The notes under the pieces are model-generated. The model worked only from the letters and a program-made list of their open reading frames with translations, searched no databases and was not told the origin of the DNA. A stretch of 64,000 nt of DNA from Candidatus Micrarchaeota archaeon (lineage in GTDB: Archaea > Micrarchaeota > Micrarchaeia > Anstonellales > Bilamarchaeaceae): the NCBI GenBank assembly GCA_040754495.1, contig JBFMCO010000032.1, positions 123 to 64,122 of the forward strand. Reading direction: 5' to 3'. Below, in pieces: positions 2,940-53,150 of this stretch. The stretch's first letter is position 1. Every line of letters begins with the position of its first letter. A program made the translations under genes and the position numbers.

Positions 2940-3812
2940 TCATCCCTCCAAGGTCTTAAGCATCCCGAGCGCGGCCTCGACCGCACGCTGCGCGTACTCG
3001 TCCGCCCTGGCCCCGGCGTTCTCCCACGACACGCCATGGCCGATTATTCCGAGCGTTACCGGCTTGCGGAATTCCAGCGACAGTTCCCCCAGCCTGCGGG
3101 CCGCATCCTTGGTTATCACTTCGTCGTGGGCAGTCTCTCCCTTGACGACCGCGCCGAGCGTTACTACGGCATCAATGCTTTTATCCATGAGCAGCTTCTT
3201 GGCTACGAGCGGGACGTCGAACACCCCCGGAGCCTCGAGCACCCTGGCCTCCGCGCCCATGGAGGCTGCCGTCTCGAGCGCCGTCTTCCTCATCCTGCCG
3301 GTTATCTCGCCGTTGAACATCGCGACCACGATTCCGAGCGTGGGCGCCTTGCGCCCCGCCAGCGTCCCTTCGTCGCCTTTGCCCTGCCTGACGCCGCGCC
3401 CGGCATTCGCGACCAGGGTTTCGGGTTTTGTGGCAAGCATGACTGCGTTGCGCACATGCTTGCGGGTTCGGTCCTCAAATATCCCTGCAAGCTCGGCCGC
3501 GCTCCATGCCTCGTTCTCATGGACGAACACCTCGATTATGTGCTTGCCGGTCATTAGCTTGGCCTGCTGGATGCCCAGCGACGCCTCGTGCGCGCACTGC
3601 GTGTCTATGGGTGCGCCTCCAACCATGCCCAGCGCCATCGCTATGTCGCATCCGGAGTCAAGGAGCCTCTTGCATTCCACCGCGAGGTCCTTGATGCCGG
3701 GCACCGTGCGCCTTTCCGCCAGGACTTCAGGAAAACCCTTCCTCAGCTCGTCGAGCGCGATTGCGCCCATGTCCACCCTTGAGAATGTGGTGTCGACTAT
3801 GCCGATTTTCAT
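2940..3812 (-). CDS. fusion protein: archaeal-type riboflavin synthase (N-terminal) + 6,7-dimethyl-8-ribityllumazine synthase (C-terminal)
   Basis: 290-aa ORF. The N-half (MKIGIVDTTFSRVDMG...VPGIKDL...CAHEASLG...HIIEVFVHE) matches the archaeal riboflavin synthase pattern. The C-half (GIVVAMFNGEITGRM...PGVFDVPLVAKKLL...VVTLGAVVKGETAHDE) matches lumazine synthase. Confidence 0.85.
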   Translation of the reverse strand: MKIGIVDTTFSRVDMGAIALDELRKGFPEVLAERRTVPGIKDLAVECKRLLDSGCDIAMALGMVGGAPIDTQCAHEASLGIQQAKLMTGKHIIEVFVHENEAWSAAELAGIFEDRTRKHVRNAVMLATKPETLVANAGRGVRQGKGDEGTLAGRKAPTLGIVVAMFNGEITGRMRKTALETAASMGAEARVLEAPGVFDVPLVAKKLLMDKSIDAVVTLGAVVKGETAHDEVITKDAARRLGELSLEFRKPVTLGIIGHGVSWENAGARADEYAQRAVEAALGMLKTLEG

Positions 3813-3821
3813 GATAACGCC

Positions 3822-4487
3822 TCAGCCTGACGGCTCCGGCTGGCCCAAAAAGTGCGCCACTACGTCCTTCCCCTCTACGAATGCGAGCCCGCGCTCCCGG
3901 GCGTAAGACGCCGCCTCTTCTTTCGAAAGAGCCCTTCCGGGACCAAGCATCTCGCACAGCACCATGGCGCCATCCAGCCCCGCGCCGCGCCCAAGCTCAA
4001 GCGCAAGCTCGGTGTGCCCCTTCCGGTTCCCGATTCCGCGGCCTATCAGCAGGAACACATGGCCCGGAGAATAGAACTGGGCGTGGAAATCCTTCATCCG
4101 GCCCCTTATCGTCTCGTCGAGCATGCGCAATGTGAGCGAGCGGTCGTTGTCTGTTATCCCGGTATAGACGTTGCAGTGGTTTATGGGGAGCGAGAACGCC
4201 GGCTTGTCGCCGTAGGCGGTCTTGCGGCAGACAAGGCTGCTGAGCCGGACATCCGCCTTCTCGAGCATGTCCGTGAAGAATGGGAGCCCCGCCTCCTTCG
4301 CCTTCTCAAGGCTGATTGCCGCGCATATCAGGCCGCCCGCGTCCTTCCTCAGGGTTTCGATGGTTTCGGGTTTTGCGTACCGCGCGCTGAGCACGAGGTC
4401 GGCCTCGCCCTCGCGCTCGTCTCCGTCGTAGACCACGACCATCGAGCCTTTTGCGAGCTCGGCCATGGCTCTTTCTGCAGGATTCAT
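3822..4487 (-). CDS. ribB: 3,4-dihydroxy-2-butanone 4-phosphate synthase
   Basis: 221-aa ORF with DGDEREGEADLV, LRKDAGGLIC and GHTELALELG motifs typical of RibB. Confidence 0.9.
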   Translation of the reverse strand: MNPAERAMAELAKGSMVVVYDGDEREGEADLVLSARYAKPETIETLRKDAGGLICAAISLEKAKEAGLPFFTDMLEKADVRLSSLVCRKTAYGDKPAFSLPINHCNVYTGITDNDRSLTLRMLDETIRGRMKDFHAQFYSPGHVFLLIGRGIGNRKGHTELALELGRGAGLDGAMVLCEMLGPGRALSKEEAASYARERGLAFVEGKDVVAHFLGQPEPSG

Positions 4488-4510
4488 GCTATCAGCACCA
4501 TTTTGCGGTC

Positions 4511-4565
4511 CTACTTATATATAGGTAACTACCATTTATTTGGTAACACACGTTATTTAAAGGTT
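4511..4565. promoter_or_regulatory. bidirectional AT-rich promoter region (ribB operon / 4593 gene)
   Basis: TATA-like CTTATATATAGG (4515-4526) lies about 33 nt from the ribB ATG. GTTATTTAAAGG (4552-4563) lies about 35 nt from ATG 4593, which is preceded by the SD-like AAAGGGGATGAT. Confidence 0.4.
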
Positions 4566-4592
4566 GGACACAATATAAAAGGGGATGATAAT

Positions 4593-5708
4593 ATGGCGAG
4601 AGGCAGTGCAGCCAAGTCAAGGGCCGGAGAGGAGAACGAATTGCTCAGGCAGCGCAGCGCCGTGAAGCCACTCGGCTCCCACACCGTCGTGGGGCACCTG
4701 CACGAACTCGGCAAATGGAAGGACATCCCGTACCTCCGCGAGAACAACGGCATGCTCCCGCCGTTCATCATAGCGGTCGGCAGCAGGGTCCGCGTGATGA
4801 AGGCGCAATCCCTCCTGAAGCTCAAGGACGCGGTGATGATTGACGAAGAAGCACGCGGGCGCTTCGGCCTCTCCTGTTACGGCCGCGTGGCGATGCTTGT
4901 AGGCAAGATGAGCTATCGCGGCCTTGATGTCCCCCTTGCAGTCGTCGAGACGCAGATGGGCTGCTCGGCCACCCAGATAAACCTCAAGGAGACGCTCTAT
5001 TTCGCGAGGCATGACGGGTACCAGACAGATACTGGCGGTGTCAAAAGCGATGCCGCTTATGTGATACGCGCCGGGACCTGCGCAGGCGTGAACAGCTTCG
5101 CCCCGAGCGAAGTGCGGGTAGGCATCGGCGACATCCTCATCGCCACAGAAAGCTACGGCTCGATAGGCGCGCTCATACAATCAACGATGCAGTCCCTGAA
5201 CTACACCGGCATCAATATCGCGGAGAAGGCGGACCTGCTCAGGAAAATGATATCCCAGTATGGTGCGTTGCGGCTCAGCCACGACGCCCAGAGCCTCGCG
5301 ACTTCGTGCTCCACCCGCCTGGTCCTCAGGCTGCAGGAGGCTGCTGATGTCATGAACATCAGGAACTTCGTCGGCCCGAACTTCACCAAGGACTCGCTTT
5401 ATGCCGAGATAGGGGAGGACGGATTCGCGATGCTTAGGGACACCTACGGCATAATGAGCACCGAGATGGAGGAGCCGGTGATAGACGTCCTTGCCGGGGA
5501 ATTCCGGAAGGCCGGCGTGCCGGTTTACAGCGCGCTCATCTCGGCGGCCATAGGCGCGATACCAGGCAAATCATTCGCCGAAACGCCCCAAGAGAAGAAG
5601 ATGGCCGCGGATGCCGAATCGAACGCGGTGAAAATAGCGGCAAGGGCCCTGTGCAATGTTGCCCTCTCTATCCATAAATCAGGCATCCGCGAAGGTCCTT
5701 CGCGCTAA
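4593..5708 (+). CDS. nucleoside phosphorylase family protein (PNP/UDP family 1, uridine-phosphorylase-like)
   Basis: In-frame ATG at 4593 inside the 618-aa ORF. The upstream part of that ORF is antisense to ribB. Motifs: VETQMGCSATQINLKE, IRAGTCAGV, GDILIATES. Confidence 0.65.
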   Translation: MARGSAAKSRAGEENELLRQRSAVKPLGSHTVVGHLHELGKWKDIPYLRENNGMLPPFIIAVGSRVRVMKAQSLLKLKDAVMIDEEARGRFGLSCYGRVAMLVGKMSYRGLDVPLAVVETQMGCSATQINLKETLYFARHDGYQTDTGGVKSDAAYVIRAGTCAGVNSFAPSEVRVGIGDILIATESYGSIGALIQSTMQSLNYTGINIAEKADLLRKMISQYGALRLSHDAQSLATSCSTRLVLRLQEAADVMNIRNFVGPNFTKDSLYAEIGEDGFAMLRDTYGIMSTEMEEPVIDVLAGEFRKAGVPVYSALISAAIGAIPGKSFAETPQEKKMAADAESNAVKIAARALCNVALSIHKSGIREGPSR

Positions 5709-6625
5709 AGCGGCCTCTCGAACTCTGCAAGGCTCTGCCTGGTCTCCTTCTCCATCTGCGAAATTACGTCCCTTGCCTTGCCATCCATCCCAGCCTTCTT
5801 GATTTCCTCTACGAACTCCAGGAACTCGTTGTAATGCTTGAGCGGGTTCTTGCACCTTGTGCCCCAGTCGAAAACCGCGCACTTCATCTCTTTGGCGAGG
5901 AACGGCCCGTAATCAGCCAGCACCCGCTCCCGCGTCTCGTCCGGGATGATGGCATCATCGTAAAGGAACCTCAGGTCCGTCCCGTCGGGCATCAGGTGGA
6001 ACAGCTCCTCTGCGACGAAAAGATGGACCTTCGCGCCCGGGAAGTCCTTCTGCACCTTCCTCTCGATTTCCTTCATCAGCCTGGCGCCGTTGATTGAGCA
6101 GGCGAGGGAGCACACTACAAGGTTCTCCAGCCGGTAGCCCTTGGTTTCCAGCGCGTCCAGCAGGTGGTATATCCCCTTCTGCAATGTCGCGCCTGTGGCG
6201 ATGGTGTCCCCGATTATTACTGTCGCATTGTCCGGAAGCGACTCGAAATTCTCGTATGTCGCCACGGCAGTAAAGGCGCCCTCCGAGCCCTCCACCCTCT
6301 GCCTCTTAATGCCAAGGAAGCACTGCGGGATGGCGAACCCGAAATTCCTCTTGAAGCCGTGGTTGAGCTGGTAGTACAAACCGCCAGCCAGGAAGATTAG
6401 CTCGGTGATGTTGGCCTGTTTCTTGCCCTTGAGGACGAGCCTGCCGACGGCGTCCATGAATATCTCGGCCATCCTGCCCATCCTGTCCTGAAGCTCCCTG
6501 CCGGCTATGTGAGGCCTGAGCAGGATGCCGCTGCCCGCGTCCGAGCATATTATATAAGTGTTCTCCGGGCATCCCTTGTCCGCCACCCTGTACATCCTGT
6601 ATCCGTTGCTGTATATGCGCTCCAT
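5705..6625 (-). CDS. type-I phosphoribosyltransferase-like protein (UPRT-like)
   Basis: 306-aa ORF with the PRPP-binding-loop-like VIIGDTIATGATL and a uracil-PRT-like layout. The 3' end overlaps the convergent 4593 gene by 4 nt. Confidence 0.55.
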   Translation of the reverse strand: MERIYSNGYRMYRVADKGCPENTYIICSDAGSGILLRPHIAGRELQDRMGRMAEIFMDAVGRLVLKGKKQANITELIFLAGGLYYQLNHGFKRNFGFAIPQCFLGIKRQRVEGSEGAFTAVATYENFESLPDNATVIIGDTIATGATLQKGIYHLLDALETKGYRLENLVVCSLACSINGARLMKEIERKVQKDFPGAKVHLFVAEELFHLMPDGTDLRFLYDDAIIPDETRERVLADYGPFLAKEMKCAVFDWGTRCKNPLKHYNEFLEFVEEIKKAGMDGKARDVISQMEKETRQSLAEFERPL

Positions 6626-8990: not shown

Positions 8991-9921
8991 CTATTACGTC
9001 CCTTATGTCCTTGCAGCCTGTTCCGTCCATCCACGCTCTCATCTCGTCCGCAATCATCCCAAAAGCCTTCGGCCCGCGGTAATACGCCGCGGTGCCCACG
9101 CTCACCCAGCTCGCCCCGGCCATCATCATCTCTATCGCGTCATCGCCGCATGTGATTCCGCCGGTCCCGATTATGGGTATCTCCACGCTCTTGTATATGT
9201 CGTATACGGCGCGGATGATGACCGGCCTGATGGCAGGTCCTGTCAGCCCGCCCACCCCGAAACCAAGGACGGGCTTCCTCCTCGCGATGTCGATCTTCAT
9301 CCCAGGACCCAGCGAGTTGCCCATGTTGATTGCGTCCGCGCCTGCCTTCTCGGCCGCCTGCGCAGCCTTCCCCTCGCCCGGCACTGAAGGGGAGAGCTTT
9401 ATTATGAGCGGTAGGGAGCACGCGTCCTTTATCGCCTTCGTAATTTCGCTCACGGATTCCGGCGTCCCCTGCCCGGCCATGGTTCCGTATCCTGGAGTGT
9501 GGGGGCAGGAGATGACGGCCTCCAGGGCTGTCGCCCCCAGTTTCCGGTTCCCGGTTTCGGGTTTCGGGTCCCGCGCCTCCTCGACTTTCGTCGCGAGCAG
9601 GCCGAACTCGTTCGCGTCCTTCCCTACTATACTTATTATGAGGGCCTCGCTCCGCGTCCATCCGCCGAACTCTGCGAGCCCCTCCCCTATGCCGGGATTC
9701 GGGTAGCCCATGGCATTCAGCATCCCGCATTCGGTCTCCACGATGTTCGGGCCCTCGTGGCCCTTGCGCGGCTCCATGGTGAGGGATTTCGCTATCACCG
9801 CCCCGCAGCCGTTCTCGCATCCAGCCTCGAGGCTTCCCTTCGTCATGCCGAGTATGCCGGATGCGAGGATTATGGGGTTCTTGAGCTTCTTCCTGAACAA
9901 TGAGCACTCCAGTCCTCCCAT
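8944..9921 (-). CDS. pyrD: dihydroorotate dehydrogenase catalytic subunit (class 1B type)
   Basis: Start placed at the internal ATG 9921 (MGGLECSLFRKKLKNPIILASGILG). Motifs: ISCPHTPG, IIKLSP, IIGTGGI. The longer ORF to 10059 reads through the heptamer repeat in the leader. Confidence 0.9.
   Translation of the reverse strand: MGGLECSLFRKKLKNPIILASGILGMTKGSLEAGCENGCGAVIAKSLTMEPRKGHEGPNIVETECGMLNAMGYPNPGIGEGLAEFGGWTRSEALIISIVGKDANEFGLLATKVEEARDPKPETGNRKLGATALEAVISCPHTPGYGTMAGQGTPESVSEITKAIKDACSLPLIIKLSPSVPGEGKAAQAAEKAGADAINMGNSLGPGMKIDIARRKPVLGFGVGGLTGPAIRPVIIRAVYDIYKSVEIPIIGTGGITCGDDAIEMMMAGASWVSVGTAAYYRGPKAFGMIADEMRAWMDGTGCKDIRDVIGAAHEKVRDHKSDIY
9535..9574. repeat. heptamer-family repeat array inside pyrD
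   Basis: TTTCCGG TTCCCGG TTTCGGG TTTCGGG TCCCG, strict 7-nt period. It encodes DPKPETGNRKLG. Confidence 0.6.
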
Positions 9922-42379: not shown

Positions 42380-43090
42380 ATGGCCGAGGTAACGATTCTA
42401 GTCGCTCTTGTCGCCGGGCTTGTCTCCTTCCTCAGCCCCTGCGTCCTTCCGCTCGTTCCGGCCTACCTGACTTTCCTTGCAGGGACCGCAGTGCAGAAGG
42501 AATACTCCGCGACGCAGCGCGCCAGGATATTCCTCTCCAGCGCCTTCTTCGTCCTGGGGTTCTCCCTGGTCTTCTCGCTCCTCGGCGTGCTCCTGCAGGG
42601 CATCCTCAGGGGCGCAGCATACGGCATACAGACATACCTGGGCTATGTCGGCGGCCTCATGATAATCGTCTTCGGCCTGACGATGACCGGCCTCATACGA
42701 ATAGAGGCACTCGAGACCGAGCGGAGGCTCAGGCTGAAGCCCACGTCGGTGCCCTACCTGACCTCGTTCCTGTTCGGGGCGGCATTCGCGGTCGGCTGGA
42801 CGCCCTGCGTCGGCGCGGCTCTAGGCACGATACTCACGCTGGCAGCGACCGAGCCGGCCTCAGCGTTCCCCCTCCTGCTTTCATACTCGGCCGGCCTCGG
42901 CATCCCGTTCCTCCTGGCCGGCCTTTTCGTCTCGCAGGCTGCCGGCGCGATAAAGCTCATCGGCCCGTACCTGAAGTGGCTGAACGTCATATTCGGCATA
43001 ATCATCATCGCGCTCGGCATCCTCGTCTTCACCGGCTCGCTCCCGCTGATAGCGAACCTTGGCTTCCTGAACGACTTCCTGCTCCAGTGA
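42380..43090 (+). CDS. ccdA: cytochrome c biogenesis/thiol-disulfide transporter CcdA (DsbD family)
   Basis: 236-aa polytopic ORF with LSPCVLPLVPAYL and a second conserved Cys (GWTPCVG). Confidence 0.85.
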   Translation: MAEVTILVALVAGLVSFLSPCVLPLVPAYLTFLAGTAVQKEYSATQRARIFLSSAFFVLGFSLVFSLLGVLLQGILRGAAYGIQTYLGYVGGLMIIVFGLTMTGLIRIEALETERRLRLKPTSVPYLTSFLFGAAFAVGWTPCVGAALGTILTLAATEPASAFPLLLSYSAGLGIPFLLAGLFVSQAAGAIKLIGPYLKWLNVIFGIIIIALGILVFTGSLPLIANLGFLNDFLLQ

Positions 43091-43094
43091 TTTT

Positions 43095-44192
43095 ATGATA
43101 AAGGCCGAAAATCCCATCGCGCTCGCAATCGTGCTCTTCCTGATAGCCTCGGCAATCCTGCTGCTCCTGTCGTTGCGGCCGTCCGCGCTTCCGCCCGGGA
43201 GCGCCGATGCGGAAGGCCCTGCCAAATCCGGCCTTTACCAAAAGGCGCCTGAGCTCTCAGGCATCGAGGGCTATGTCAACGCGCCGGAAGGCTTCAGCCT
43301 GGCCGATGCAAAAGGCAAGGTCGTCCTGATAGACTTCTGGACCTATTCGTGCATCAACTGCATCAGGACGCTTCCGTATCTCACGGCATGGGACGAGAAA
43401 TACCGCGACAAGGGGCTGGTAATCGTCGGCGTCCACACGCCGGAGTTCGAGTTCGAGAAGGACTACCCGAACGTGTTGGCCGCGGCCGAAAAATTCGGCA
43501 TCAAGTACCCGGTCGTGCTTGACAACTCCTACTCGACGTGGCAGGCCTACGGCAACCACTTCTGGCCGCACAAATACCTCATCGATTCCGACGGCTTCAT
43601 ACGCTACGACCACATCGGCGAGGGCGGGTACGAGGAGACCGAGACGGAGATACAAAAGCTGCTTGCAGAGAGGGACGCGAAGGCAGAGATGGGCGGTCTG
43701 GTCTCGGAAAACATCACAGAGAGGACGCCGGCCGGCTTCACGACGCCGGAGATATACCTCGGGTACTCGTACGCGCTCCCGCGCGGGCAGGACATCGGCA
43801 ACATCGGCGGCCTCAGGCCCGGCGAGACTGCGGACTATGCGCTGCCCGCTTCGTTCCAGCCGCATGCAGCCTACCTTGAAGGGACATGGAAGAGCGGGCC
43901 CGAGTATGTGGAGCTTGCCTCGGACGAGGGGGTGGTCGTCCTCGTATACAGGGCCAAGAACGTGAACATCGTCGCAGAAGGCAACTCGACGATTACCATC
44001 ACGCTGGACGGCACGGTCCCGCAGGCCGAAGTCATCGGCTCGGACGGGATACTGGAGGGCGGCAGGGCGGAATTCAACGTAACGGACGAGCGGCTCTACG
44101 AAATCGTGGACGATGAGGGCTATTTCGAGAAGACTCTCGTGATGAATGTCCGCGGGAAGGGTTTCCGCCTCTACACGTTCACGTTCGGATAG
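43095..44192 (+). CDS. membrane-anchored thioredoxin-like (TlpA/ResA/DipZ-C-like) oxidoreductase
   Basis: 365-aa ORF with an N-terminal anchor, a redoxin domain carrying WTYSCINCIRTLP (CxxC), and an extra C-terminal beta-rich domain as in DipZ-type proteins. Confidence 0.8.
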   Translation: MIKAENPIALAIVLFLIASAILLLLSLRPSALPPGSADAEGPAKSGLYQKAPELSGIEGYVNAPEGFSLADAKGKVVLIDFWTYSCINCIRTLPYLTAWDEKYRDKGLVIVGVHTPEFEFEKDYPNVLAAAEKFGIKYPVVLDNSYSTWQAYGNHFWPHKYLIDSDGFIRYDHIGEGGYEETETEIQKLLAERDAKAEMGGLVSENITERTPAGFTTPEIYLGYSYALPRGQDIGNIGGLRPGETADYALPASFQPHAAYLEGTWKSGPEYVELASDEGVVVLVYRAKNVNIVAEGNSTITITLDGTVPQAEVIGSDGILEGGRAEFNVTDERLYEIVDDEGYFEKTLVMNVRGKGFRLYTFTFG

Positions 44193-44198
44193 CGCAAA

Positions 44199-44210
44199 CT
44201 ATTTAAGATT
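44199..44210 (+). promoter_or_regulatory. TATA-like box for 44230 gene
   Basis: CTATTTAAGATT is centred about 26 nt upstream of ATG 44230. Confidence 0.4.
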
Positions 44211-44229
44211 AGGATAACCATCTCCTCCG

Positions 44230-45294
44230 ATGGCAGAATCCTTCGTTGGCATAGAGATAGCCGTGTTCGTGGTCACGGCCTCCATCGCGCTTGCCGGCAT
44301 CCTCTGGGGCGTTGGCAGGGCATTCGGCTGGAAGAAGCTCGAGCTGTTCGGCGTGGAGGAACTCATGCAATCCATCATAAACGCGGCCATCATCGGCTCT
44401 TTTGCTGCCGTCATAGAGCTTGTCGGTCTGGTCAGCTCCGAGGTCGTCGGGGAATCATGCAAGGAAGGCAACGTCATCGCCCAGCTCACATGCACCATGC
44501 AGGGCCTCAACGACTCGCTGTTCGTCATGCTCCAGGAGCTCCTCCGGACGCTCAACCTCATCGGCTACTACCAGGGGCTCTCGCTCGACTTCGGGCAGTT
44601 CGCGGTGGCCCCGTTCGCGAACCTCGGCCCGGTTTCTGACAGCCTCTCCCTCCAGCTCCTTTCCCTGAACTGGCTCATGATACTCGTCGAGCTGAACACC
44701 CAGATTGCGCTTTTCATCTCGCAGAACGCGCTCGGGCTGCTGTTCCCGGTCGGCCTCGTCCTGCGCACGCTGTTCGCCACGCGCAAGGTCGGCGGGTTCC
44801 TGATAGCCCTCGCCATCGGCCTCTACATATTCTACCCGACGTTCATACTCGTGTTCCCAAACCCCCAGCCGGACGTGGAGCGGGCCGCGCTCACGATGGG
44901 CAACTTCACGAACAACACCTTCTACGCGACCGCGCCGCTCATAGACCTGAACGACAACTACGCCATCGCCGCGAAGCTGGACATCCTGAGCATGCGCTGC
45001 AACCCCCACGCCTTCAACATAACCAACGTGACCAACGTGACGAACACCACGACCGCGTGCGACGATTTCCTGCAGGCACAGAACATGACCTCGAACGTGA
45101 CGCAGAACATGACCTTCGACTTCACCGGCGACATCACCGTGGCCGTGCAGAGCAACAGCAACGCCATCTCGAAGACGTCGCTCTACGCGGTCGTCGCGCC
45201 CATATTCTCTCTCGTGATATCCATCGTTTTCGTGAAGGAGCTGGCCAACATCCTCGGCAGCGAAATAGGCCTCCGGACGATAGCATCCATCTGA
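44230..45294 (+). CDS. polytopic membrane protein (possible VirB6/CedA-like) with sequon-dense loop
   Basis: 354-aa ORF with multiple hydrophobic helices and the extracellular loop NITNVTNVTNTTTAC...NMTSNVTQNMTF. Confidence 0.65.
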   Translation: MAESFVGIEIAVFVVTASIALAGILWGVGRAFGWKKLELFGVEELMQSIINAAIIGSFAAVIELVGLVSSEVVGESCKEGNVIAQLTCTMQGLNDSLFVMLQELLRTLNLIGYYQGLSLDFGQFAVAPFANLGPVSDSLSLQLLSLNWLMILVELNTQIALFISQNALGLLFPVGLVLRTLFATRKVGGFLIALAIGLYIFYPTFILVFPNPQPDVERAALTMGNFTNNTFYATAPLIDLNDNYAIAAKLDILSMRCNPHAFNITNVTNVTNTTTACDDFLQAQNMTSNVTQNMTFDFTGDITVAVQSNSNAISKTSLYAVVAPIFSLVISIVFVKELANILGSEIGLRTIASI

Positions 45295-45325
45295 ATTTTA
45301 AAGACGACAACACAAAGTGAGGTAT

Positions 45326-46111
45326 ATGTTCATGAACAGGGCCGTCACCGCGGCCTCCCTCCTGGGAGGCATCCTGGCCGTCGTCATATCGCTCGTTTAC
45401 GGCAACCCCATACTACCGGTCATCGCGGCCGTGTTCTTCTTCATGACGCTGCTGCTCTGGAAATACGGCTACCTGCTAATCCCGTTCTTCACCCGGGCCA
45501 CCAACATCGTGGAGGTGCACAGCGGCGGGTACGAAGTTCCGCCCACCAGGGACTACATAATCAAGAAGACCGAGGGCGGCTACTACGCGACCAGGTTCCT
45601 GGAAGTGCGCTTCTACGAGAGCTCGATGGACAAGAGCCAGGACGAGAAGAGGACGATGTTCGATTCCTTCGAGAAGGCTGTGAGCTCGCTCAAGTACATC
45701 GTCCGCGTTACGCTCATGATAAGCACCCTCGACCTGTCCAGGCATATAGAGGAGATAAAGACCAAGCGCGGGGTCGTCGAGGCGAAGAAGGCCAAGGAGG
45801 CCAAGCTCGCGGCGGACGAGAGCATGAGGATGGACCGCGAACTGGCCTACTGGAACCGCCTCTTGGACCGCATCACGCAGGGCGAGAGGCCCGTGGAGAT
45901 AGTGGCTTTCGCATCGACGACCGCATTCGGGCTTACGCGCGACGAGGCCCTGGGGCGCGTGAGCAGGCAGGCCAAGGAACTGAAGACCATCCTTTCCAGC
46001 TCGCTGGGGTGCGACATACGCGACCTCTCGGACATAGAGATGCTCAAATGCTTCGAGTGGGAGTATTTCTTCCCGACCACGCAGGAAGAGATAAAGGACG
46101 CGCTATTTTGA
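45326..46111 (+). CDS. two-TM protein with VirB4/TrbE N-terminal-domain-like region
   Basis: ORF opens at GTG 45317, with ATGs at 45326 and 45332 following GAGGT. Two N-terminal TM helices are followed by ...YYATRFLEVRFYESSMDKSQDEKRTMFDSFEKAVSSLKYIVRVTLMISTLD, a pattern like VirB3-VirB4 N-terminal regions. Confidence 0.6.
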   Translation: MFMNRAVTAASLLGGILAVVISLVYGNPILPVIAAVFFFMTLLLWKYGYLLIPFFTRATNIVEVHSGGYEVPPTRDYIIKKTEGGYYATRFLEVRFYESSMDKSQDEKRTMFDSFEKAVSSLKYIVRVTLMISTLDLSRHIEEIKTKRGVVEAKKAKEAKLAADESMRMDRELAYWNRLLDRITQGERPVEIVAFASTTAFGLTRDEALGRVSRQAKELKTILSSSLGCDIRDLSDIEMLKCFEWEYFFPTTQEEIKDALF

Positions 46112-46129
46112 GGGGATTGCGATTCGTGT

Positions 46130-48913
46130 TCAGCCCAGGGCATTCCTCACAATCCTGGCCGGCACTCTGGTCAGATGGCCGGGACGCACAAAGATTCTCT
46201 CCCTGAATGACTTGTCAAGCAGCTTGACTGAAAGCTCGCCAAGTTCAGGATTTTCTAGGACCGGTTTTTCGGAGGACCAGACTTCGACTGTTCTCGGCGT
46301 TTTCCGGTCCATGTCATAGCCGACGACATGCCGCTCGTCATACCCCGAATCGGCAAGGACCGAAAGCATGAATGCTTCATCCAGACCCGCGGTCCTTTTC
46401 TGGAAAGCCGATGAAAGCTCCAGAAGCGCATAAAGCGGCGTGTCTATCTCCCCCATCGAAGGGACGAAACCCCCGTTCCCACCAGGAGGTTTCGCAAGGA
46501 CGAATCCATCCAGCTCTTTCCCTACTGCCGGCCGCGTTTTAACGAACACCATCAGGTTAGTGGCCTGCTCAATTTTTTGTTTGAGCCGCACCGGCTCTTC
46601 CACGCCGAGTCCGGCAAGCTCTTCCAGGGTCAAGGTGCTTGTATATAGCGTCCCTTCGGCAATGATCTCGAATCCGAAATACTGCACCTGCGTCTTGAAG
46701 TGGGCAGTTCTTGAATATTCGACCGGCAGGGAAACAAGCACCGTGCCGGTTTCCACCAGAATCCTGTTCGCTTCGTTGAACACATTTGCCAGCGCTTCGG
46801 TTGTGAGGCGGTGGCAGAATTGTATCATGGCGATGGCATCGAATTCCCCTTCCACCCTGAAACCGGCCTTTTTCACCTCGTGCGCCTTGATATACCTGTG
46901 CACTAGCTGGATGCCCAGCATATCCGCAGCCTTTCCCAGGGGTTCAGGGTAGAATGACATCTCAAGCGTTTTTCTGTTACCAAGAAGCTCCCTGAACTGC
47001 CTCAGGATGGCGAGGGCTTCCCTGAAGACCCTTGTGTTGGCTAGCCTCCTTTTGATACTTTCAATGAGCGCGGGGGAGGGGTTCTCCTGCTCTATCTCAA
47101 GTGCGTTTATGCGATCTTCGGTAAGGCCTCTTTTAGAGTATAAGGCCCTTCTGAGCACCGGGTTTTCCTTCAGGCGCTCCGAAATTGTCCCCGGGCTATA
47201 TGCAAGGGGTCCTCCGTTGGCGTTGCTGAGATTTTTTGCACTGGGAATCCCATCGAAAGATGTGATTGCTTCGAGGATGTGCCTGTCAAGGCGCCGGTCT
47301 ATGGCCGCCCTTGCGTTTCCTTTCGTGCTTATCCAATGTTTGGAGGTAAACTCCCTGTCGAAGACTGCCCTGTCGCATGATTCAACGAACGCTATGCCCC
47401 TCTCTTCCAATGCCTGCTGAAGCCCTGGGTTTTCCTTCAGGCGCTTTGAAATTATCTCCGGGCCATATGCAAGCGGCCCTTCGCCCTCTTTGCCGAGATT
47501 TCCTGCAGCGGGAATCCCATCGAAAGATGTGATTGCTTCGAGGATGTGCCTGTCAAGGCGCCGGTCTATGGCCGCACTTGCCGTTCCTGTCGTACTTGTC
47601 CACTGAGCGGAGGTAAGTTCCCTGTCGAAAATATCCCTGTTGCAGGTTTCAACAAATATTACGCCTTTTTCTTCCAGAGTCTTTCGGAGCCCCGGATTTT
47701 TCTTTAGCCGGTGAGAGATTAGTTTCAGGCTATATGCAAGCGGCCCTTCGCCCTCTTTGCCGAGATTTCCTGCAGCGGGAATCCCATCGAAAGATGTGAT
47801 TGCTTCGAGGATGTGCCTGTCAAGGCGCTTGTCTATCGCCACCCTTGCCTTCCTTATCGCGCCTGTCCACTGTTTGGAGGTAATATTCCTGTCGAAGACC
47901 GCCCTATCGCAGGTTTCAACGTATGCCGCGCCTTTTTCTTCCAATGCCTTCTGGAGTTCCGGGTTTTTCTTCAGATACCTTGAGATTGTTGTTGCGCTGT
48001 ATTCAAGCGGCCCTCCATTGTGTCTGCTGAGATTGTGGGGGTTGGGAATCCCGTCATATAATTCAATTGCCTCGGGGATATGGCTCTCAAGGCGCCGGTC
48101 TATGGCAGCGTTTATTTTCCCTGTTGCTCTGGTCCACCGTCCAGAGATAAATTCCCTGTCGAAGACCGCCCTCTCGCAGGTTTCAACGAATGCAATGCCT
48201 TTCTCTTCCAACGCTTTCTTGAGTTCCGGGTTTTCCTTCAGGCGTCCCAAGATTGTCACCGGATCATATGCAAGCGGCCCTCCGCTGGTTTTGCTGAGGT
48301 TTGTTGCATTCGGAATCCCATTGTATGATTCAATTGCCTCGAGGATATGGCTGTCAAGGCGCCGGTCTATGGCAATCCTTACTTTTTTTCGCGGTTGTTT
48401 TAACCTTCCAGAGATAAATTCCCTGTCGAAGACCGCCCTCTCGCAGGTTTCAACGAACGCAATGCCTTTCTCTTCCAACGCCTCCCGGAGCAGTGGATTT
48501 TTCAATAACCGGTCCCCGATTAGCTTAGTACTATATTCGAGCGGCCCCTTGCCCTCTTTGCTGAGATTTTTAACACTTGGAATCCCATCGTATGATTCGA
48601 TTGCCTCGAGGATGTGCCTGTCAAGGCGCAAGTCTATGGCACCCCTAATCCTCCCAGACGCGTTTACCCATCGATGAGAGGTAATTTCACTGTCGAAGAC
48701 CGCCCTATCGCAGGCTTCAACGAACGAGATGCCCTTTTCTTCCAATGCCTTCTGAAGCCCCGGATTTTCCTTCAGGCGCTCCGAGATAATGTGATGGCCA
48801 CACGCCATCGGTCCTCCGCCATCTTTGCTGAGAGTATGAGCGCTGGGGATTCCGTTGCATGAGCGGATATACTGAAGTATCTCATTATCTATCTCGGAAT
48901 AGGTTTTCCCCAT
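46130..48913 (-). CDS. repeat protein: about 6.7 tandem 89-aa modules plus a roughly 330-aa C-terminal domain (weak methyltransferase-fold-like pattern)
   Basis: 927-aa ORF. The repeated module is IDRRLDRHILEAI.S.DGIP...NL.K...GPL.Y....I..RLK.NP.L..ALEEKGIAFVETC.RAVFDREF.S..W. The C-terminal FDAIAMIQFCHRL...NRILVETGTVLVSLP weakly recalls class I MTases. Confidence 0.75.
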   Translation of the reverse strand: MGKTYSEIDNEILQYIRSCNGIPSAHTLSKDGGGPMACGHHIISERLKENPGLQKALEEKGISFVEACDRAVFDSEITSHRWVNASGRIRGAIDLRLDRHILEAIESYDGIPSVKNLSKEGKGPLEYSTKLIGDRLLKNPLLREALEEKGIAFVETCERAVFDREFISGRLKQPRKKVRIAIDRRLDSHILEAIESYNGIPNATNLSKTSGGPLAYDPVTILGRLKENPELKKALEEKGIAFVETCERAVFDREFISGRWTRATGKINAAIDRRLESHIPEAIELYDGIPNPHNLSRHNGGPLEYSATTISRYLKKNPELQKALEEKGAAYVETCDRAVFDRNITSKQWTGAIRKARVAIDKRLDRHILEAITSFDGIPAAGNLGKEGEGPLAYSLKLISHRLKKNPGLRKTLEEKGVIFVETCNRDIFDRELTSAQWTSTTGTASAAIDRRLDRHILEAITSFDGIPAAGNLGKEGEGPLAYGPEIISKRLKENPGLQQALEERGIAFVESCDRAVFDREFTSKHWISTKGNARAAIDRRLDRHILEAITSFDGIPSAKNLSNANGGPLAYSPGTISERLKENPVLRRALYSKRGLTEDRINALEIEQENPSPALIESIKRRLANTRVFREALAILRQFRELLGNRKTLEMSFYPEPLGKAADMLGIQLVHRYIKAHEVKKAGFRVEGEFDAIAMIQFCHRLTTEALANVFNEANRILVETGTVLVSLPVEYSRTAHFKTQVQYFGFEIIAEGTLYTSTLTLEELAGLGVEEPVRLKQKIEQATNLMVFVKTRPAVGKELDGFVLAKPPGGNGGFVPSMGEIDTPLYALLELSSAFQKRTAGLDEAFMLSVLADSGYDERHVVGYDMDRKTPRTVEVWSSEKPVLENPELGELSVKLLDKSFRERIFVRPGHLTRVPARIVRNALG
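47126..48892. repeat. coding tandem repeat, period 267 bp, about 6.7 copies
   Basis: The landmark GGGAATCCC recurs at 47243, 47510 and 47777, exactly 267 bp apart. A 97-nt stretch is identical between two adjacent copies (about 47465-47561 and 47732-47828). Confidence 0.85.
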
Positions 48914-48965
48914 TTTATTCGTTATAATATATGTAAGAAAAGGTTATAAACGGGCCAGTTAGCGA

Positions 48966-49140
48966 AAAAACCGGGACCGGAAACCGGGAACCCGAGACTG
49001 CAGCCTGGAAACAGGAATCCGGATGCCGGTATTCCAGAACCCCAAACGGGAAACCAAGCTTCCAAGACCGGAAACCATACGGCTGCTACCGCAAGTTTCC
49101 CGGTTCCTCCCGGAACCGAGAACCGGGAACTGGGAACCAC
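48966..49140. repeat. largest array of the 7-nt-period repeat family (SGAAACC orientation on + strand)
   Basis: CCGGGAC CGGAAAC CGGGAAC CCGAGAC ... GACCGGAAACC ... GGAACCG AGAACCG GGAACTG GGAACCA. There is a short inverted segment GTTTCCCGGTTCC. The array is intergenic, between divergent genes. Confidence 0.75.
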
Positions 49141-49265
49141 CGACGCCAGGACGTTATTTCCGGAGCATAACGTTTATATACCGCCAACGAGATACTTACT
49201 CTCGACATGCCTCATGAAGTTTTGATGAAACTTTTATCTGTCGTTTCATCGGAGGAAAAGTCTCA

Positions 49266-50840
49266 ATGAAGCCATCATACATGCTCTCCAAGGAGATTGC
49301 GCGCAAGATGATTCTCGTGCACCCTCCTGAGCCGAGGAAGGAGCTCCTGCTCTCGCTTCCGTCGCAGGGGGTGTACATCGGCAAGACCAGGTTCCTGCGC
49401 ACGCCGGTCTTCTGGGACCCGAGCAAGCTCATCAATCCGCACCTCGCCATAATAGGCATAACCGGCTCGGGCAAATCCTACACAGTGAAGACGTTCCTCA
49501 CGAGGGCCTCCCTCATCTGGGACACGAACGCCATCATCCTGGACTGGGTGGGCGAGTACAAGGAGTGGGTGACACAGGCCGGGGGCCGCGTCATAGACCT
49601 GTCCAAGGAGAAGCTGAACATACTCGACCTTGCGGGCCTTCCCAAGCGGAGCAGGATAAAGCAGATAATCTCGGCGCTCGACATCCTCCTCGACCTGAAA
49701 AGCTACCCTAACGAGAGGGACGAGATAGAGGAAGCCCTCGAATACGTCTACTACAGGTCCGGAAGCCAGAAACCGACCCTGAAGGAGCAGGTCAAGGCCA
49801 TGAACCTGGAGAAGGCGCGGGCGCAGAGGAAGCTCGGAAAGCAGGAGGTCGAGGAGGCCCTGGAGGAGCTCTGCTATGACGGGAAATGCGAGAGGCCGAC
49901 GCTCGCGCATGTCGTCCATGTGCTCGAGAGGAGCAACAAGAGGAAGGCCGCCCGCCTGCTCAAGCGCTTCACCGCAGAGGGCACGGACTTCTTCGCCGGC
50001 TCATCGACGCTGGATATCGGGAAGCTGACCACCAGCGGCCTCGTCTGCATCGACCTGCACGGCCTGCCGAGCGAGGAGATAAGGAGCCTTGCAGGCCTCA
50101 CTATACTCCAGTACATCAAGGAGCTGATGCGCGCCGAGGGCATGCAGAAGGACAACAAGCACGTCCGCCTCTTCGTGGTGCTGGACGAGGCGTGGAAAAT
50201 CGCGCAGGACGAGCGAAGCGACGTCATAACCATAGTCCGCGAGGGCCGCAAGTATAATTTTTCCCTCGTCATCGCGACGCAGAACCCGAGCGACATGCAC
50301 AAGACGATATTCAGCAACATCGGCACGGTGTTCGTCCTAAGGCTGATACTCAAGGAATACCGGGACTACGTCCGCAACTCCATCGGCTACTCCGACTTCA
50401 TAGACGGCGAGATTTCCAAGTTCGGCGTCGGAGACGCGGCCGTGAACATGATTTTCGCGGAGAGGCAGTCGCGTGTCATGACCTTCCTCATGGAAAAAAT
50501 TGACGGCGAGGAGCCTCTCCTCATATACAAGATAAGAGGTGGGGAGATGATAGTGGAAATCGAGCGCGAGCAGTTCGTCAGGATGCTCTACGAAATCGGC
50601 CTGAACGAGAGCCAGCTCAACCTCATCAAGGGCGAGTTCGAGAAGGGCGACGGCCTCCTCGACGGGGAGCAGCTCGTCGCGGTCCTGGAGAAGTTCGGAT
50701 ACTCCAAGCCCTCCATAATCTCGTTCCTGAGGCAGCTCGGCATTGACGAGAAGAACCTCATCCGCGTGTTCTCGCTTGTCCGGATGAGGAAGGCAACGAA
50801 GGGCGTGGTCAACGTGGTCCTCGAGGACGGACACGTCTGA
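49266..50840 (+). CDS. VirB4/TrbE/HerA-superfamily ATPase (C-terminal ATPase module type)
   Basis: 524-aa ORF with Walker A (IIGITGSGKSYTVK), Walker B (RLFVVLDEAWKIA), and REGRKYNFSLVIATQNPSDM, typical of the VirB4/HerA-FtsK clade. GGAGG sits upstream of the ATG. Confidence 0.8.
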   Translation: MKPSYMLSKEIARKMILVHPPEPRKELLLSLPSQGVYIGKTRFLRTPVFWDPSKLINPHLAIIGITGSGKSYTVKTFLTRASLIWDTNAIILDWVGEYKEWVTQAGGRVIDLSKEKLNILDLAGLPKRSRIKQIISALDILLDLKSYPNERDEIEEALEYVYYRSGSQKPTLKEQVKAMNLEKARAQRKLGKQEVEEALEELCYDGKCERPTLAHVVHVLERSNKRKAARLLKRFTAEGTDFFAGSSTLDIGKLTTSGLVCIDLHGLPSEEIRSLAGLTILQYIKELMRAEGMQKDNKHVRLFVVLDEAWKIAQDERSDVITIVREGRKYNFSLVIATQNPSDMHKTIFSNIGTVFVLRLILKEYRDYVRNSIGYSDFIDGEISKFGVGDAAVNMIFAERQSRVMTFLMEKIDGEEPLLIYKIRGGEMIVEIEREQFVRMLYEIGLNESQLNLIKGEFEKGDGLLDGEQLVAVLEKFGYSKPSIISFLRQLGIDEKNLIRVFSLVRMRKATKGVVNVVLEDGHV

Positions 50841-50857
50841 TAAGGGGGAAAACTCAT

Positions 50858-51562
50858 ATGGCGGAAGAGACGATCACAGTTCCGGCGGCGCAGAAGAAGC
50901 CCTTGAAGGGCCTGGCCTCGCTTCTCTCGGGCCTCGGCTTCACGAGGATACAGTACGGGAAGGGAACGCTCTCTGTGGAGAAGATAAAGGGGACCGACCT
51001 GCAGGGCAAGCCGTACCTGGAGTACCGGGTCGAGTTCAGGCAGGATTCGGTCGTCTTCCTCTACAGCTTCTCGGCCAAGAGGAGCCGCATCGCGAGGCTG
51101 CTGGATTTGATGCCGACGTTCCTCAACATCCTCCAGGTGGCGGAGGACTACTACGACGTGCGCCCGACCGGCATATTCACCCACATCAACGCCCTGCTCT
51201 CCGAGACCTCGAAGATAATAGACCGGGACGCGCTGGAATTCTCGACGCAGCTCTCCGAGCTGCAGGCGCGCTACAACGACATGAGCACCAAATACGACGA
51301 CCTGGTCCGCTCCGGGGAGACCAACACCCGCCTCCTGCTCGAGTGCGAGAGGAAGAGGGACGAGGTTCAGAAGAAGCTCGCCCAGCTTTCCGGCATGGGC
51401 GACGATTTGCTCAAGGAGACGCTCTACAACTGGATAAAGCTCCACGGCGGAACGATTGACGTGCGCGAGTTCGCGAAGGCGCATTCCGTCGCCGTGACGC
51501 GGGCCGAGGACGGCCTGAACATGCTCATCAAGGAAGGATACATCAGGAGGCGCTTCGAATGA
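50858..51562 (+). CDS. hypothetical coiled-coil protein with C-terminal wHTH-like region
   Basis: 234-aa ORF starting 18 nt after the ATPase stop. Central heptad-rich segment (LSELQARYNDMSTKYDDL...KRDEVQKKLAQL). The C-terminus (IDVREFAKAHSVAVTRAEDGLNMLIKEGYIRR) is wHTH-like. Confidence 0.6.
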   Translation: MAEETITVPAAQKKPLKGLASLLSGLGFTRIQYGKGTLSVEKIKGTDLQGKPYLEYRVEFRQDSVVFLYSFSAKRSRIARLLDLMPTFLNILQVAEDYYDVRPTGIFTHINALLSETSKIIDRDALEFSTQLSELQARYNDMSTKYDDLVRSGETNTRLLLECERKRDEVQKKLAQLSGMGDDLLKETLYNWIKLHGGTIDVREFAKAHSVAVTRAEDGLNMLIKEGYIRRRFE

Positions 51563-51822
51563 GCAGGCGCAGAAGAAGGGGCGGAAACGGAGGTCCGGGC
51601 GCGGGGGTCCAGATGGCAGGAAAATCCGGGCCGGAGGCCGGAAGCCGGAGACGGGATGCCGCAGAAGAGCCGCAGATGAGCCAGTACATCTTCACCTTCG
51701 AGCTCATCCGCCACTATCCGACGGTGCGCTCGTTCCTGGTGAAGCAGCCGCTCAAGCGCTCGTTCTCCGATACCTTCTCAGAGCTCCTTGGCGGGAACAA
51801 GAAAGGCATTTATAGGCTTTAG
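51559..51822 (+). CDS. small basic hypothetical protein
   Basis: 87-aa ORF with an ATGA overlap with the upstream gene and an Arg/Gly-rich N-terminus. Confidence 0.35.
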   Translation: MSRRRRRGGNGGPGAGVQMAGKSGPEAGSRRRDAAEEPQMSQYIFTFELIRHYPTVRSFLVKQPLKRSFSDTFSELLGGNKKGIYRL

Positions 51823-51848
51823 CCCCCTCTTTTCTCCAGGGTTTCCTT

Positions 51849-53150
51849 ATGAAAGTGCTGCTTGTCGGGAACGGTGCCAGGGAGCATGCCATAGCCGAGC
51901 ACCTGGCACGGGATTGCGAGCTATATGCGCTTATGTCCAAGAAGAACCCGGCCATAGCCCAGCTCTCGAAAGAGCACTGGCTCTGCGACATCGAGGACGC
52001 GGAGGCGGTATCGAAGGCCATTTCCGGGCGCGGGTTCGACCTCGGTTTCGCGAGCCCGGATGCCGTGCTCGCCGCAGGGGTGAGCGACGTCCTCGAGAAG
52101 GCGGGCATGCTCGTCGCCTCCCCGCTGAAGGCGGCGGCCCGGATTGAGTGGGACAAGTCCTTCATGCGGAATCTCCTGGAGCGGCACAGGATAAAGGGGC
52201 AGCCGCGGCACGCGGTCGTAACGGATTCCGGCAATGCCCGCCGCGCGATATCGGATTTCGGCCAGGTCGCGGTCAAGCCGCTCGGCCTCACGGGAGGAAA
52301 AGGCGTCAAGGTGAGCGGAGACCACTTCAATCACATAGACGAGAAGGTGGAATACGCGGAGAGCCTCATAAGGAAGGACGGAAAGGTCCTAATCGAGGAG
52401 AAGCTGGTCGGCGAGGAATTCACGCTCCAGGGATTCTCGGACGGCTCCCGCATAGCGGCGATGCCTCCCGTGCAGGACCACAAGCGCGCGTATGCAGGAG
52501 ATTTGGGGCCCAACACGGGCGGCATGGGCAGCTACTCATCGGGCGAGCGCCTCCCCTTCATGGAAAGCGGCGAGCTGGAGGAGGCGAAGAAAATCCTCCA
52601 GGGCGTGATACACGCGATGAAAAAGGAAGGCGTCCCCTTCAGGGGCGTGCTTTACGGCCAGTTCATCCTGACCGCGGGCGGCGTGAAGGTAATAGAGTTC
52701 AACGCCCGCTTCGGGGACCCGGAGGCCATGAACGTGCTCGCCCTCCTGCAGGACTCCCTCTCCAACGTCTTCCTGTCGATGGCCGAGGGCGACCTCCGCC
52801 CCCCGCGCTTCCTTGACGACTCGACCGTAGTCAAGTATCTCGTGCCGGAGGGCTATCCGGACAAGCCGGTGAAAGACGCGCCGGTGGAGATAGACGCCCG
52901 GGGCATAGAAGACAGCGGCGCGAAGCTATACTACGCCTCAGTGTACGAAAAGGGCGGCAGGATACTCACGACCGGCTCCCGCGCTTTCGGCGTTCTCGGC
53001 AGGGCAGGGTCTCTCGAGGAAGCCGAAAGGGTGGCAGAAGAAGGGTGCAGGCACATCCGCGGGCCGGTCTGGCACCGCAGTGACATCGGCAAAAAGTCGC
53101 TCCTTGAGGCCAAGGTCGCACGCATGCGCTCCCTGCGCGGGAAACCATGA
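51849..53150 (+). CDS. purD: phosphoribosylamine-glycine ligase
   Basis: 433-aa ORF with MKVLLVGNGAREHAIA and ATP-grasp motifs (GKGV, EFNARFGDPE). Confidence 0.95.
   Translation: MKVLLVGNGAREHAIAEHLARDCELYALMSKKNPAIAQLSKEHWLCDIEDAEAVSKAISGRGFDLGFASPDAVLAAGVSDVLEKAGMLVASPLKAAARIEWDKSFMRNLLERHRIKGQPRHAVVTDSGNARRAISDFGQVAVKPLGLTGGKGVKVSGDHFNHIDEKVEYAESLIRKDGKVLIEEKLVGEEFTLQGFSDGSRIAAMPPVQDHKRAYAGDLGPNTGGMGSYSSGERLPFMESGELEEAKKILQGVIHAMKKEGVPFRGVLYGQFILTAGGVKVIEFNARFGDPEAMNVLALLQDSLSNVFLSMAEGDLRPPRFLDDSTVVKYLVPEGYPDKPVKDAPVEIDARGIEDSGAKLYYASVYEKGGRILTTGSRAFGVLGRAGSLEEAERVAEEGCRHIRGPVWHRSDIGKKSLLEAKVARMRSLRGKP

Follow-up and report, generated by a model that had tools for sequence, protein, structure and literature searches.

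A probable Ced/Ted-like translocation cluster with a two-piece VirB4-type motor in a Micrarchaeota chromosome

The window analyzed here is a stretch of 64,000 nucleotides (64 kb) from a Candidatus Micrarchaeota archaeon (GenBank assembly GCA_040754495.1, contig JBFMCO010000032.1), and is a piece of Micrarchaeota (DPANN) chromosome. Six genes, here called A to F, are found at 44230–51822, and the parts of a VirB4-type motor are encoded by two of them, B and D, which lie on either side of the opposite-strand gene C. Two questions are raised by this locus: whether the motor gene was broken by the DNA between its halves or is naturally made in two pieces, and to what kind of machine it belongs. 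A first-pass annotation, made from the sequence without database searches, had offered both a natural split at the domain boundary and a disruption by a 3.1-kb insertion; the first of these held and the second did not. The cluster is probably a chromosomal, vertically inherited, Ced/Ted-like membrane translocation system of the Micrarchaeota, derived from a type IV secretion system (T4SS) and driven by a two-piece motor.

Gene B (45317 or 45326 to 46111, plus strand) encodes a protein of 261–264 amino acids (aa) with two transmembrane (TM) helices and a soluble alpha/beta domain. It has 255 homologues and belongs to no Pfam family. The named homologues were all from Micrarchaeota/Micrarchaeia, Bilamarchaeum, or Ca. 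ainarchaeum, apart from one partial sequence in a Nitrososphaera metagenome-assembled genome (MAG). A hidden Markov model (HMM) of B was built from 35 sequences and searched against 1.84 billion (1.84e9) representative proteins, which returned 163 family members, nearly all of them stand-alone proteins of 237–287 aa. Several deep subgroups shared only 17–40% identity with the window protein, and every named member of them was from Micrarchaeia. Among the 150 matches listed, exactly one was a fusion of B to an ATPase: P0509 (603 aa, E 3.6e-5), in which residues 18–230 match the B profile and are followed by a DUF87/AAA_10 ATPase. The source of P0509 is an uncultured member of the Desulfurococcales. 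The NCBIfam CedB model aligns with it end to end (E 1.8e-65, model positions 9–587 of 590), and the gene order at its locus is CedA1 (124.5 bits, over the cut-off), CedA (168 bits), and then CedB. These matches mark P0509 as a true CedB relative of full length, and the locus around it as a true Ced locus.

A broad profile made from 73 B-family sequences was then aligned with P0509 using hhalign (probability 97.2%, E 3.1e-11), with B positions 42–249 corresponding to P0509 positions 44–240, and with a second Desulfurococcales CedB, 65% identical to P0509 (E 7.4e-11). The neighbouring CedD-like ATPase (E 0.13) and ATPase Z of divergent Micrarchaeia, described below (E 0.41), were used as controls and were negative. 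When the 73 B-family members were scanned singly against NCBIfam, CedB was matched by seven, VirB4_plasma by five, and TraC by one. The positions checked fall in the N-terminal regions of the models (CedB 9–202 of 590, VirB4_plasma 137–272 of 894, TraC 242–352 of 800). A sequence search of the B profile against PDB chains gave nothing relevant. On these alignments, B is homologous to the CedB/VirB4 N-terminal domain (NTD) and the match is specific, which bears out the earlier suggestion that the soluble part of B resembles the VirB4/TrbE N-domain.

Gene D (49266–50840, plus strand) encodes the other half, a 524-aa ATPase with the motifs GITGSGKS (residues 64–71), VVLDEAW (304–310), and REGRKYNFSLVIATQNPSD (325–343). 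The VirB4/HerA type proposed from these motifs agrees with the family matches: in Pfam, DUF87 (Helicase HerA central domain, E 6.6e-20) and AAA_10 (E 1.7e-16), and in NCBIfam, CedB as the best model (94.7 bits), followed by the VirB4-like CD1110 (84.6), CedD (68.6), VirB4_plasma (67.6), and the HerA models (about 45–55 bits). In the Pfam match the P-loop domain begins at about residue 38, and D is without an NTD. Residues 20–416 align to residues 257–598 of P0509 (BLASTP E 4e-16). A C-terminal extension of about 120 aa follows, for which a search of PDB sequences gave noise only. The D homologues number in the hundreds and share 67–99% identity, and the named ones come from Micrarchaeota, Bilamarchaeaceae, or Ca. 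ainarchaeum MAGs, including one from Bilamarchaeum that was automatically labelled 'DNA import protein CedB'. In both Pfam and NCBIfam scans, D was the sole ATPase among the six cluster proteins. The matches of B and D to CedB are collinear, and the break falls in the linker that joins NTD and ATPase domain. The two proteins together approximate one full VirB4-like protein, as the first-pass annotation had it, and the CedB architecture is present here only as the sum of two genes.

The question of the split is answered by the related loci (L001–L003 and L006–L011). B and D were two genes in each of the Micrarchaeota loci examined, none of which had a full-length VirB4 combining NTD and ATPase. 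Relatives free of the repeat-protein insertion were found: the B–D gap is 48 bp in L009, 190 bp in L007, 205 bp in L008, and 299 bp in L010, the two open reading frames (ORFs) overlap in L006, and other loci hold unrelated genes at this position (the B–D slot). A TTTATATA box (49173–49180, plus strand) is the predicted promoter of a D-E-F unit. It could be aligned upstream of D in seven related loci (TTTAAATA in L001), and in the insert-free loci L008 and L009 it lies 4–44 nt past the B stop codon. The D-E-F unit would thus have an archaeal-type (TATA) promoter of its own. Because B and D are separate even in insert-free loci, B is a stand-alone protein throughout the phylum, and a separate box for D directly follows the B stop codon, the comparison shows the split to be ancient and natural and to lie at the domain boundary. 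An origin of the split in the insertion is not supported: the genes are separate even in loci where 48 bp lie between them or where they overlap, and the window insert sits between the B stop codon and the TATA box of D.

The leader of D varies among these genomes. Most relatives have a short one, in which the TATA box is followed after about 25 nt by GGAGG and the ATG. The leaders in the window (49195–49265) and in L008 (about 5850–6000) contain extra copies of CATGAAGTTT(T)GATGAAACTTT, which resemble the D start region (GATGAAACC) and can self-pair. In the window these repeats yield a 14-codon upstream ORF that terminates on the D ATG.

The surroundings of the cluster are conserved as well, and its one place among housekeeping genes is shared by eight related genomes. 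In L001–L003 and L008–L010 the gene order is PHP-domain gene, A, B, slot, D, E, F, purD, transglutaminase, geranylgeranyl reductase, and PcrB; beta-CASP and ThiF genes are also part of the conserved housekeeping context. In L011 the order B, slot, D, E, F, purD is kept and A is missing beside B. The B and D proteins are 64–99% identical to their listed homologues. It follows from the conserved housekeeping synteny that the cluster is chromosomal and vertically inherited and not a mobile element, in agreement with the earlier view that it is no standard conjugative element. No relaxase, VirD4-type coupling protein, or integrase was matched among the six cluster proteins in Pfam or NCBIfam, and no pilin-like ORF (50–170 aa with two hydrophobic segments) was found in the 64-kb window; the same absences had been noted at first pass.

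A second variable slot lies upstream, between the PHP gene and A, where DsbD_TM-type and thioredoxin/redoxin-like genes are found in the window (42380–44192) and in L008 (1294–3754). Such genes are absent from this position in L001–L003 and L010.

An extended form of the cluster is found in the divergent Micrarchaeia L006 and L007, in the order pilin candidate, A, B, D, E, TM protein, two-TM protein, and second ATPase. The pilin candidate (125–126 aa) is encoded directly upstream of A and was read as a signal peptide and two hydrophobic helices, the signal peptide being read directly from the sequence. Its Pfam matches, TrbC/VirB2 (E 1.4e-5) and T4SS_pilin (E 2.6e-5 and 1.9e-4), are just under the gathering scores. 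The TM protein has 217–234 aa and is followed by a 97-aa protein with two TM segments. No pilin gene was found beside the cluster in the close relatives L001–L003 and L008–L011.

The extended cluster is closed by a second P-loop ATPase, Z (741–760 aa; L006:13878–16160, L007:14142–16367), with an unclassified N-terminal domain of about 280 aa and faint matches to HerA_C, Zot, and CedB-like families. ATPase Z might correspond to the coupling protein (CedD/VirD4). On the minus strand of L007 (5179–8364), beside the VirB2-type pilin gene, lies the gene of a surface protein of 1061 aa whose signal peptide is of class III (type IV pilin-like).

Gene A (44230–45294, plus strand) encodes a polytopic membrane protein of 354 aa with five hydrophobic segments (residues 10–28, 49–67, 159–177, 190–208, and 317–335) and a loop rich in N-x-S/T (N-glycosylation) sequons. 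Its AlphaFold2 model is all-helical (pLDDT 72). About 211 homologues were found, without a Pfam family, and those with names were all from Micrarchaeota/Micrarchaeia, Bilamarchaeum, or Ca. ainarchaeum. A lies upstream of B in L001–L003 and L006–L010, and in the Desulfurococcales loci L004 and L005 the polytopic CedA likewise comes directly before CedB. The linkage of A to B is not universal: upstream of B in L011 there are an inositol-1-phosphate synthase gene and a 54-aa ORF (3018–5071), and not A. A short motif, LRxxFxxRxxGxxLIAxAI, is common to A and CedA, and the pilin candidate has a weak hhalign match to the first helix of A (E 0.0065). Both recall, and do not prove, the relationship reported between CedA1 and the N-terminal part of CedA (PMC9905601).

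Genes E and F complete the predicted D-E-F unit, and none of D, E, and F has TM helices. Gene E (50858–51562, plus strand) encodes a soluble protein of 234 aa. Its position directly downstream of D and its size are kept in L001–L003 and L008–L011, and the L006 and L007 proteins that follow D are weak matches to it (hhalign E 1e-3). E had no significant match in Pfam, NCBIfam, or PDB and reads as a coiled coil with a winged-helix-like C-terminal end. Gene F (51559–51822, plus strand), the start of which overlaps the E stop codon (ATGA), encodes a small basic protein of 87 aa. It follows E in all close relatives (52–105 aa) and has a conserved C-terminal block of about 45 aa, YIFTFELIRQYPTVRSFLVKQPLKRSF; no family match was obtained for it. 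Judged from sequence, both E and the C-terminal end of D resemble modules that bind nucleic acids.

A number of results weigh against a Ced/Ted-like system. The AlphaFold2 model of B is of medium confidence (pLDDT 66.7), and its top PDB match in Foldseek was indeed a VirB4, TrwK (7o42_A), at an E value (0.18) that is not significant. For A, hhalign comparisons of two profiles with CedA were not significant (E 0.037 and 0.11), none of 18 A-family members matched the NCBIfam models of CedA, CedE, or VirB6, and nothing relevant was obtained when the A profile was searched against PDB chain sequences. Foldseek likewise returned nothing significant for A, its best related match, a chain of the R388 T4SS structure, coming at rank 16 (E 1.1). 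As for the earlier suggestion of a polytopic VirB6/CedA analogue, A fits CedA/VirB6 by position and topology only, and homology could not be shown. D scores 94.7 bits against an NCBIfam CedB equivalog cut-off of 700 bits, and all its other NCBIfam scores are far under their cut-offs too. Its ATPase domain is about equally close to the CedD-like ATPase. PADLOC models of defence-type HerA score up to 92 bits on D, and its best PDB sequence matches are defence-type HerA proteins (E 2.9e-15). Finally, no tblastn match to the pilin candidates or ATPase Z of L006 and L007 was found in the window. In terms of sequence, B and D together are a distant CedB relative and not an orthologue by the NCBI criterion, and the ATPase domain of D taken alone is not decisive between the CedB/VirB4 and HerA clades.

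The HerA matches, together with DUF87, are what would be expected if D belonged to a HerA-type DNA repair or anti-virus module, acting on intracellular DNA beside membrane proteins that are unrelated neighbours. This is very unlikely, since the HAS-barrel N-terminal domain of repair and defence HerA is missing from D, and no NurA, Sir2, DUF4297-like, or other nuclease or effector partner was found among A, B, C, E, and F with Pfam, NCBIfam, and PADLOC. The always adjacent B is, moreover, specifically homologous to the membrane-anchored NTD of CedB, and CedB and VirB4 outscore the NCBIfam HerA models on D. An FtsK-like translocase for chromosome segregation or cell division, anchored by B, is more improbable still. 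D does belong to the FtsK-HerA superfamily, and a system that is universal and chromosomal in the phylum is what a housekeeping function would predict; the faint Pfam FtsK_SpoIIIE match is, however, marginal (23.7 bits against a 24-bit cut-off), and the homology of the NTD to CedB/VirB4 and the T4SS pilin linkage in the divergent relatives speak against it.

The Ced/Ted-like system favoured here was compared with known machines. Ced (CedA, CedA1, CedA2, CedB, CedD, and CedE, in Sulfolobales, Desulfurococcales, and Acidilobales) has a membrane-anchored VirB4/HerA-type ATPase, the halves of which are homologous to B and D. In Ced, too, a polytopic membrane protein gene lies directly upstream of the motor (L004 and L005), and the system is chromosomal and without a relaxase. 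The motor is one gene in Ced, whereas it is two in the window; window A has no detectable similarity to CedA or CedE; no CedA1-type pilin is found in the 64-kb window; no second, VirD4-like membrane ATPase of the CedD kind is found among the six cluster proteins, though one may be encoded elsewhere in the genome; nothing in Ced corresponds to E and F; and the host phylum here is the DPANN Micrarchaeota, whereas Ced has been called 'Crenarchaeal specific' (Wu et al. 2025, PMC11868833). Ted of the Thermoproteales (TedA, TedB, and TedC), likened by its description (Beltran et al. 2023, PMC9905601), is a minimal chromosomal set of VirB2, VirB6, and VirB4 whose components are also too divergent to be recognized at the level of BLAST. 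A cleaved signal peptide has been reported for TedC (PMC9905601), and an N-terminal signal sequence is likewise seen in the pilin candidates of L006 and L007. TedB differs in being a single full-length VirB4-like protein.

A precedent for a VirB4 function spread over two archaeal polypeptides is given by CedB and CedD, whose partial VirB4 N-terminal domains complement each other (Wu et al. 2025, PMC11868833). These are two complete paralogous ATPases, each with part of the NTD; in the window, an NTD-only protein without a P-loop is paired with an ATPase-only protein. VirB4-like domains have also been discussed for giant proteins of Nanohaloarchaeota (PMC10266531). Among bacteria, the T4SS of Patescibacteria (candidate phyla radiation, CPR) is alike by description, as it is conserved, chromosomal, VirB4-centred, and relaxase-less and belongs to ultra-small episymbionts (PMC12102498). 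It has been proposed to serve host interaction and linked to epibiotic growth (PMC12102498), and differs in being bacterial, of the MPF-FATA type, and equipped with a full-length VirB4. Of the hallmarks of archaeal or monoderm conjugative systems of the MPF-FATA type, namely a full-length VirB4, VirD4 and a relaxase (sought among the six proteins), and a plasmid or integrative location, none was found here. No paper linking DPANN or Micrarchaeota with CedB came up in a literature search, and the automatic Bilamarchaeum label is the sole trace of such a link.

As a working model, B would give the two membrane helices and the VirB4/CedB-type NTD, and D the P-loop ATPase. We infer a B-D-A complex, together with its substrate and direction: a ring of D would sit on the membrane-anchored B, next to A, which would take the place of the CedA/VirB6 channel, and E and F would be accessory proteins, possibly handling the substrate. 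The substrate is likely DNA passed between cells, and by analogy with Ced, in which DNA damage induces the import of DNA between cells, it may be imported, perhaps from the host of the episymbiont (for Ced as the basis of substrate and direction, see PMC9905601, PMC11868833, and PMC11823120). Where a pilin gene is present, a VirB2-type pilus is probably built by the same machine.

In an alternative reading, the motor mainly builds a VirB2-type filament or contact structure, for attachment to the host or for exchange of proteins and metabolites with it, and the cluster is a pilus-assembly or host-contact machine and not a DNA transporter. VirB4-type ATPases power T4SS pilus biogenesis (PMC12102498), the VirB2-type pilin gene stands beside the cluster in L006 and L007 with the class III signal-peptide surface protein adjacent in L007, and the relaxase-less chromosomal T4SS of Patescibacteria is tied to epibiotic growth (PMC12102498). 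Such a machine is a serious alternative but the less likely one, given that no pilin gene is present in the window or beside the cluster in the close relatives, that the closest characterised relatives (Ced) import DNA, and that E and the D C-terminus resemble nucleic-acid-binding modules as far as can be read from their sequences.

As to the DNA between B and D, the ORF listing agrees with the first-pass annotation on the position of all six genes, and the B–D spacer is filled by an inserted segment of about 3 kb with low GC at third codon positions (GC3) (46112–49140, right border approximate). GC is 0.49–0.55 across the C segment versus 0.58–0.63 in the flanks, and GC3 is 0.59 in C versus 0.86–0.89 in A, B, D, and E (0.76–0.89, and host-like, when F is included), so that the lower GC noted earlier is real; the lowest-GC kilobase of the window sits within C. 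Gene C (46130–48913, minus strand) encodes a repeat protein of 927 aa, in which 6.1 copies of a 267-bp repeat (47147–48784) give about six repeats of 89 aa, and which has a C-terminal domain of about 330 aa. Faint methyltransferase-like and HTH-like (helix-turn-helix) matches were all that C gave. Its C-terminal part had no PDB match, and no gene for the exact product is on record in the assembly collection. A relationship to the opposite-strand methyltransferase in the L011 slot was considered and rejected, as the proteins are unrelated on comparison.

The 352-bp C–D spacer (48914–49265) bears GGRAACC-type heptamer repeats upstream of C (48969–49138). Tandem Repeats Finder reports arrays at 48969–48992 and 49112–49138 (3.6 and 3.9 copies), and a 21-nt repeat family has three copies in this region. 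With five exact GGRAACC matches in the spacer versus 0.56 per kb window-wide, the array is real, and modest where it had been described as large. The heptamer is absent from the B–D slots of nine related loci, bar one copy overlapping the D start codon in L010, and is therefore taken as part of the inserted segment. A role as a regulatory element of D was rejected, as the heptamers are missing upstream of D in relatives (with the one L010 exception) and, seen from the D promoter, lie towards the insert. Around the window insert, neither terminal repeats (direct or inverted) nor a tRNA gene nor a duplicate of the B 3' end was found. An Rfam scan of 43500–52500 had zero matches, and ARAGORN found zero tRNA genes in the whole window.

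Other cargo occupies the slot in other genomes: an alpha/beta hydrolase gene in L001 and L003, an opposite-strand methyltransferase gene in L011, and, in L002, a 106-aa ORF (9404–9724) bracketed by a duplicated B 3' end. The second copy in L002 (9836–9897) comprises 62 nt, is about 87% identical to the last ~20 codons of B, and lies just upstream of the D promoter; the two B-end copies enclose an insert of about 570 bp. This duplication and the varied cargo among genomes suggest recurrent integration at the junction of the B 3' end and the D promoter. On these comparisons, the C segment is a real, recently acquired insert in intergenic DNA that breaks nothing, and C is cargo of the insertion that does not belong to the system.

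A hot spot for foreign genes between B and D, the duplicated B 3' end around the L002 insert, and the foreign composition of C would also suit the remains of a conjugative plasmid or provirus that had integrated, its VirB4 gene broken by the insertion of C and its system in decay. Such a remnant is hardly credible: A, B, D, E, and F are intact and have host-like GC3, B and D keep their high identity to the listed homologues and the same housekeeping context in many genomes, the two genes are separate where nothing is inserted, integrase and relaxase matches are lacking among the six cluster proteins, and no plasmid match to D exceeds 26% identity.

To our knowledge, no chromosomal DNA-transfer machines of archaea other than Ced and Ted have been characterised, and a conserved relative in DPANN would widen their distribution. 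The cluster would be a concrete candidate for DNA exchange or host contact by ultra-small symbiotic archaea. A VirB4 that is naturally split between its domains may also serve as a probe for the NTD's own role, for example in membrane docking as opposed to ATP-driven work. More tentatively, and with considerable doubt, Micrarchaeota may keep this Ced/Ted-like machine with its two-piece motor as part of the core genome for taking up host DNA or as a conduit to their hosts. If so, it would be an archaeal counterpart of the Patescibacteria T4SS needed for epibiotic growth, and 'domesticated conjugation machinery' would be extended from Crenarchaeota to DPANN.

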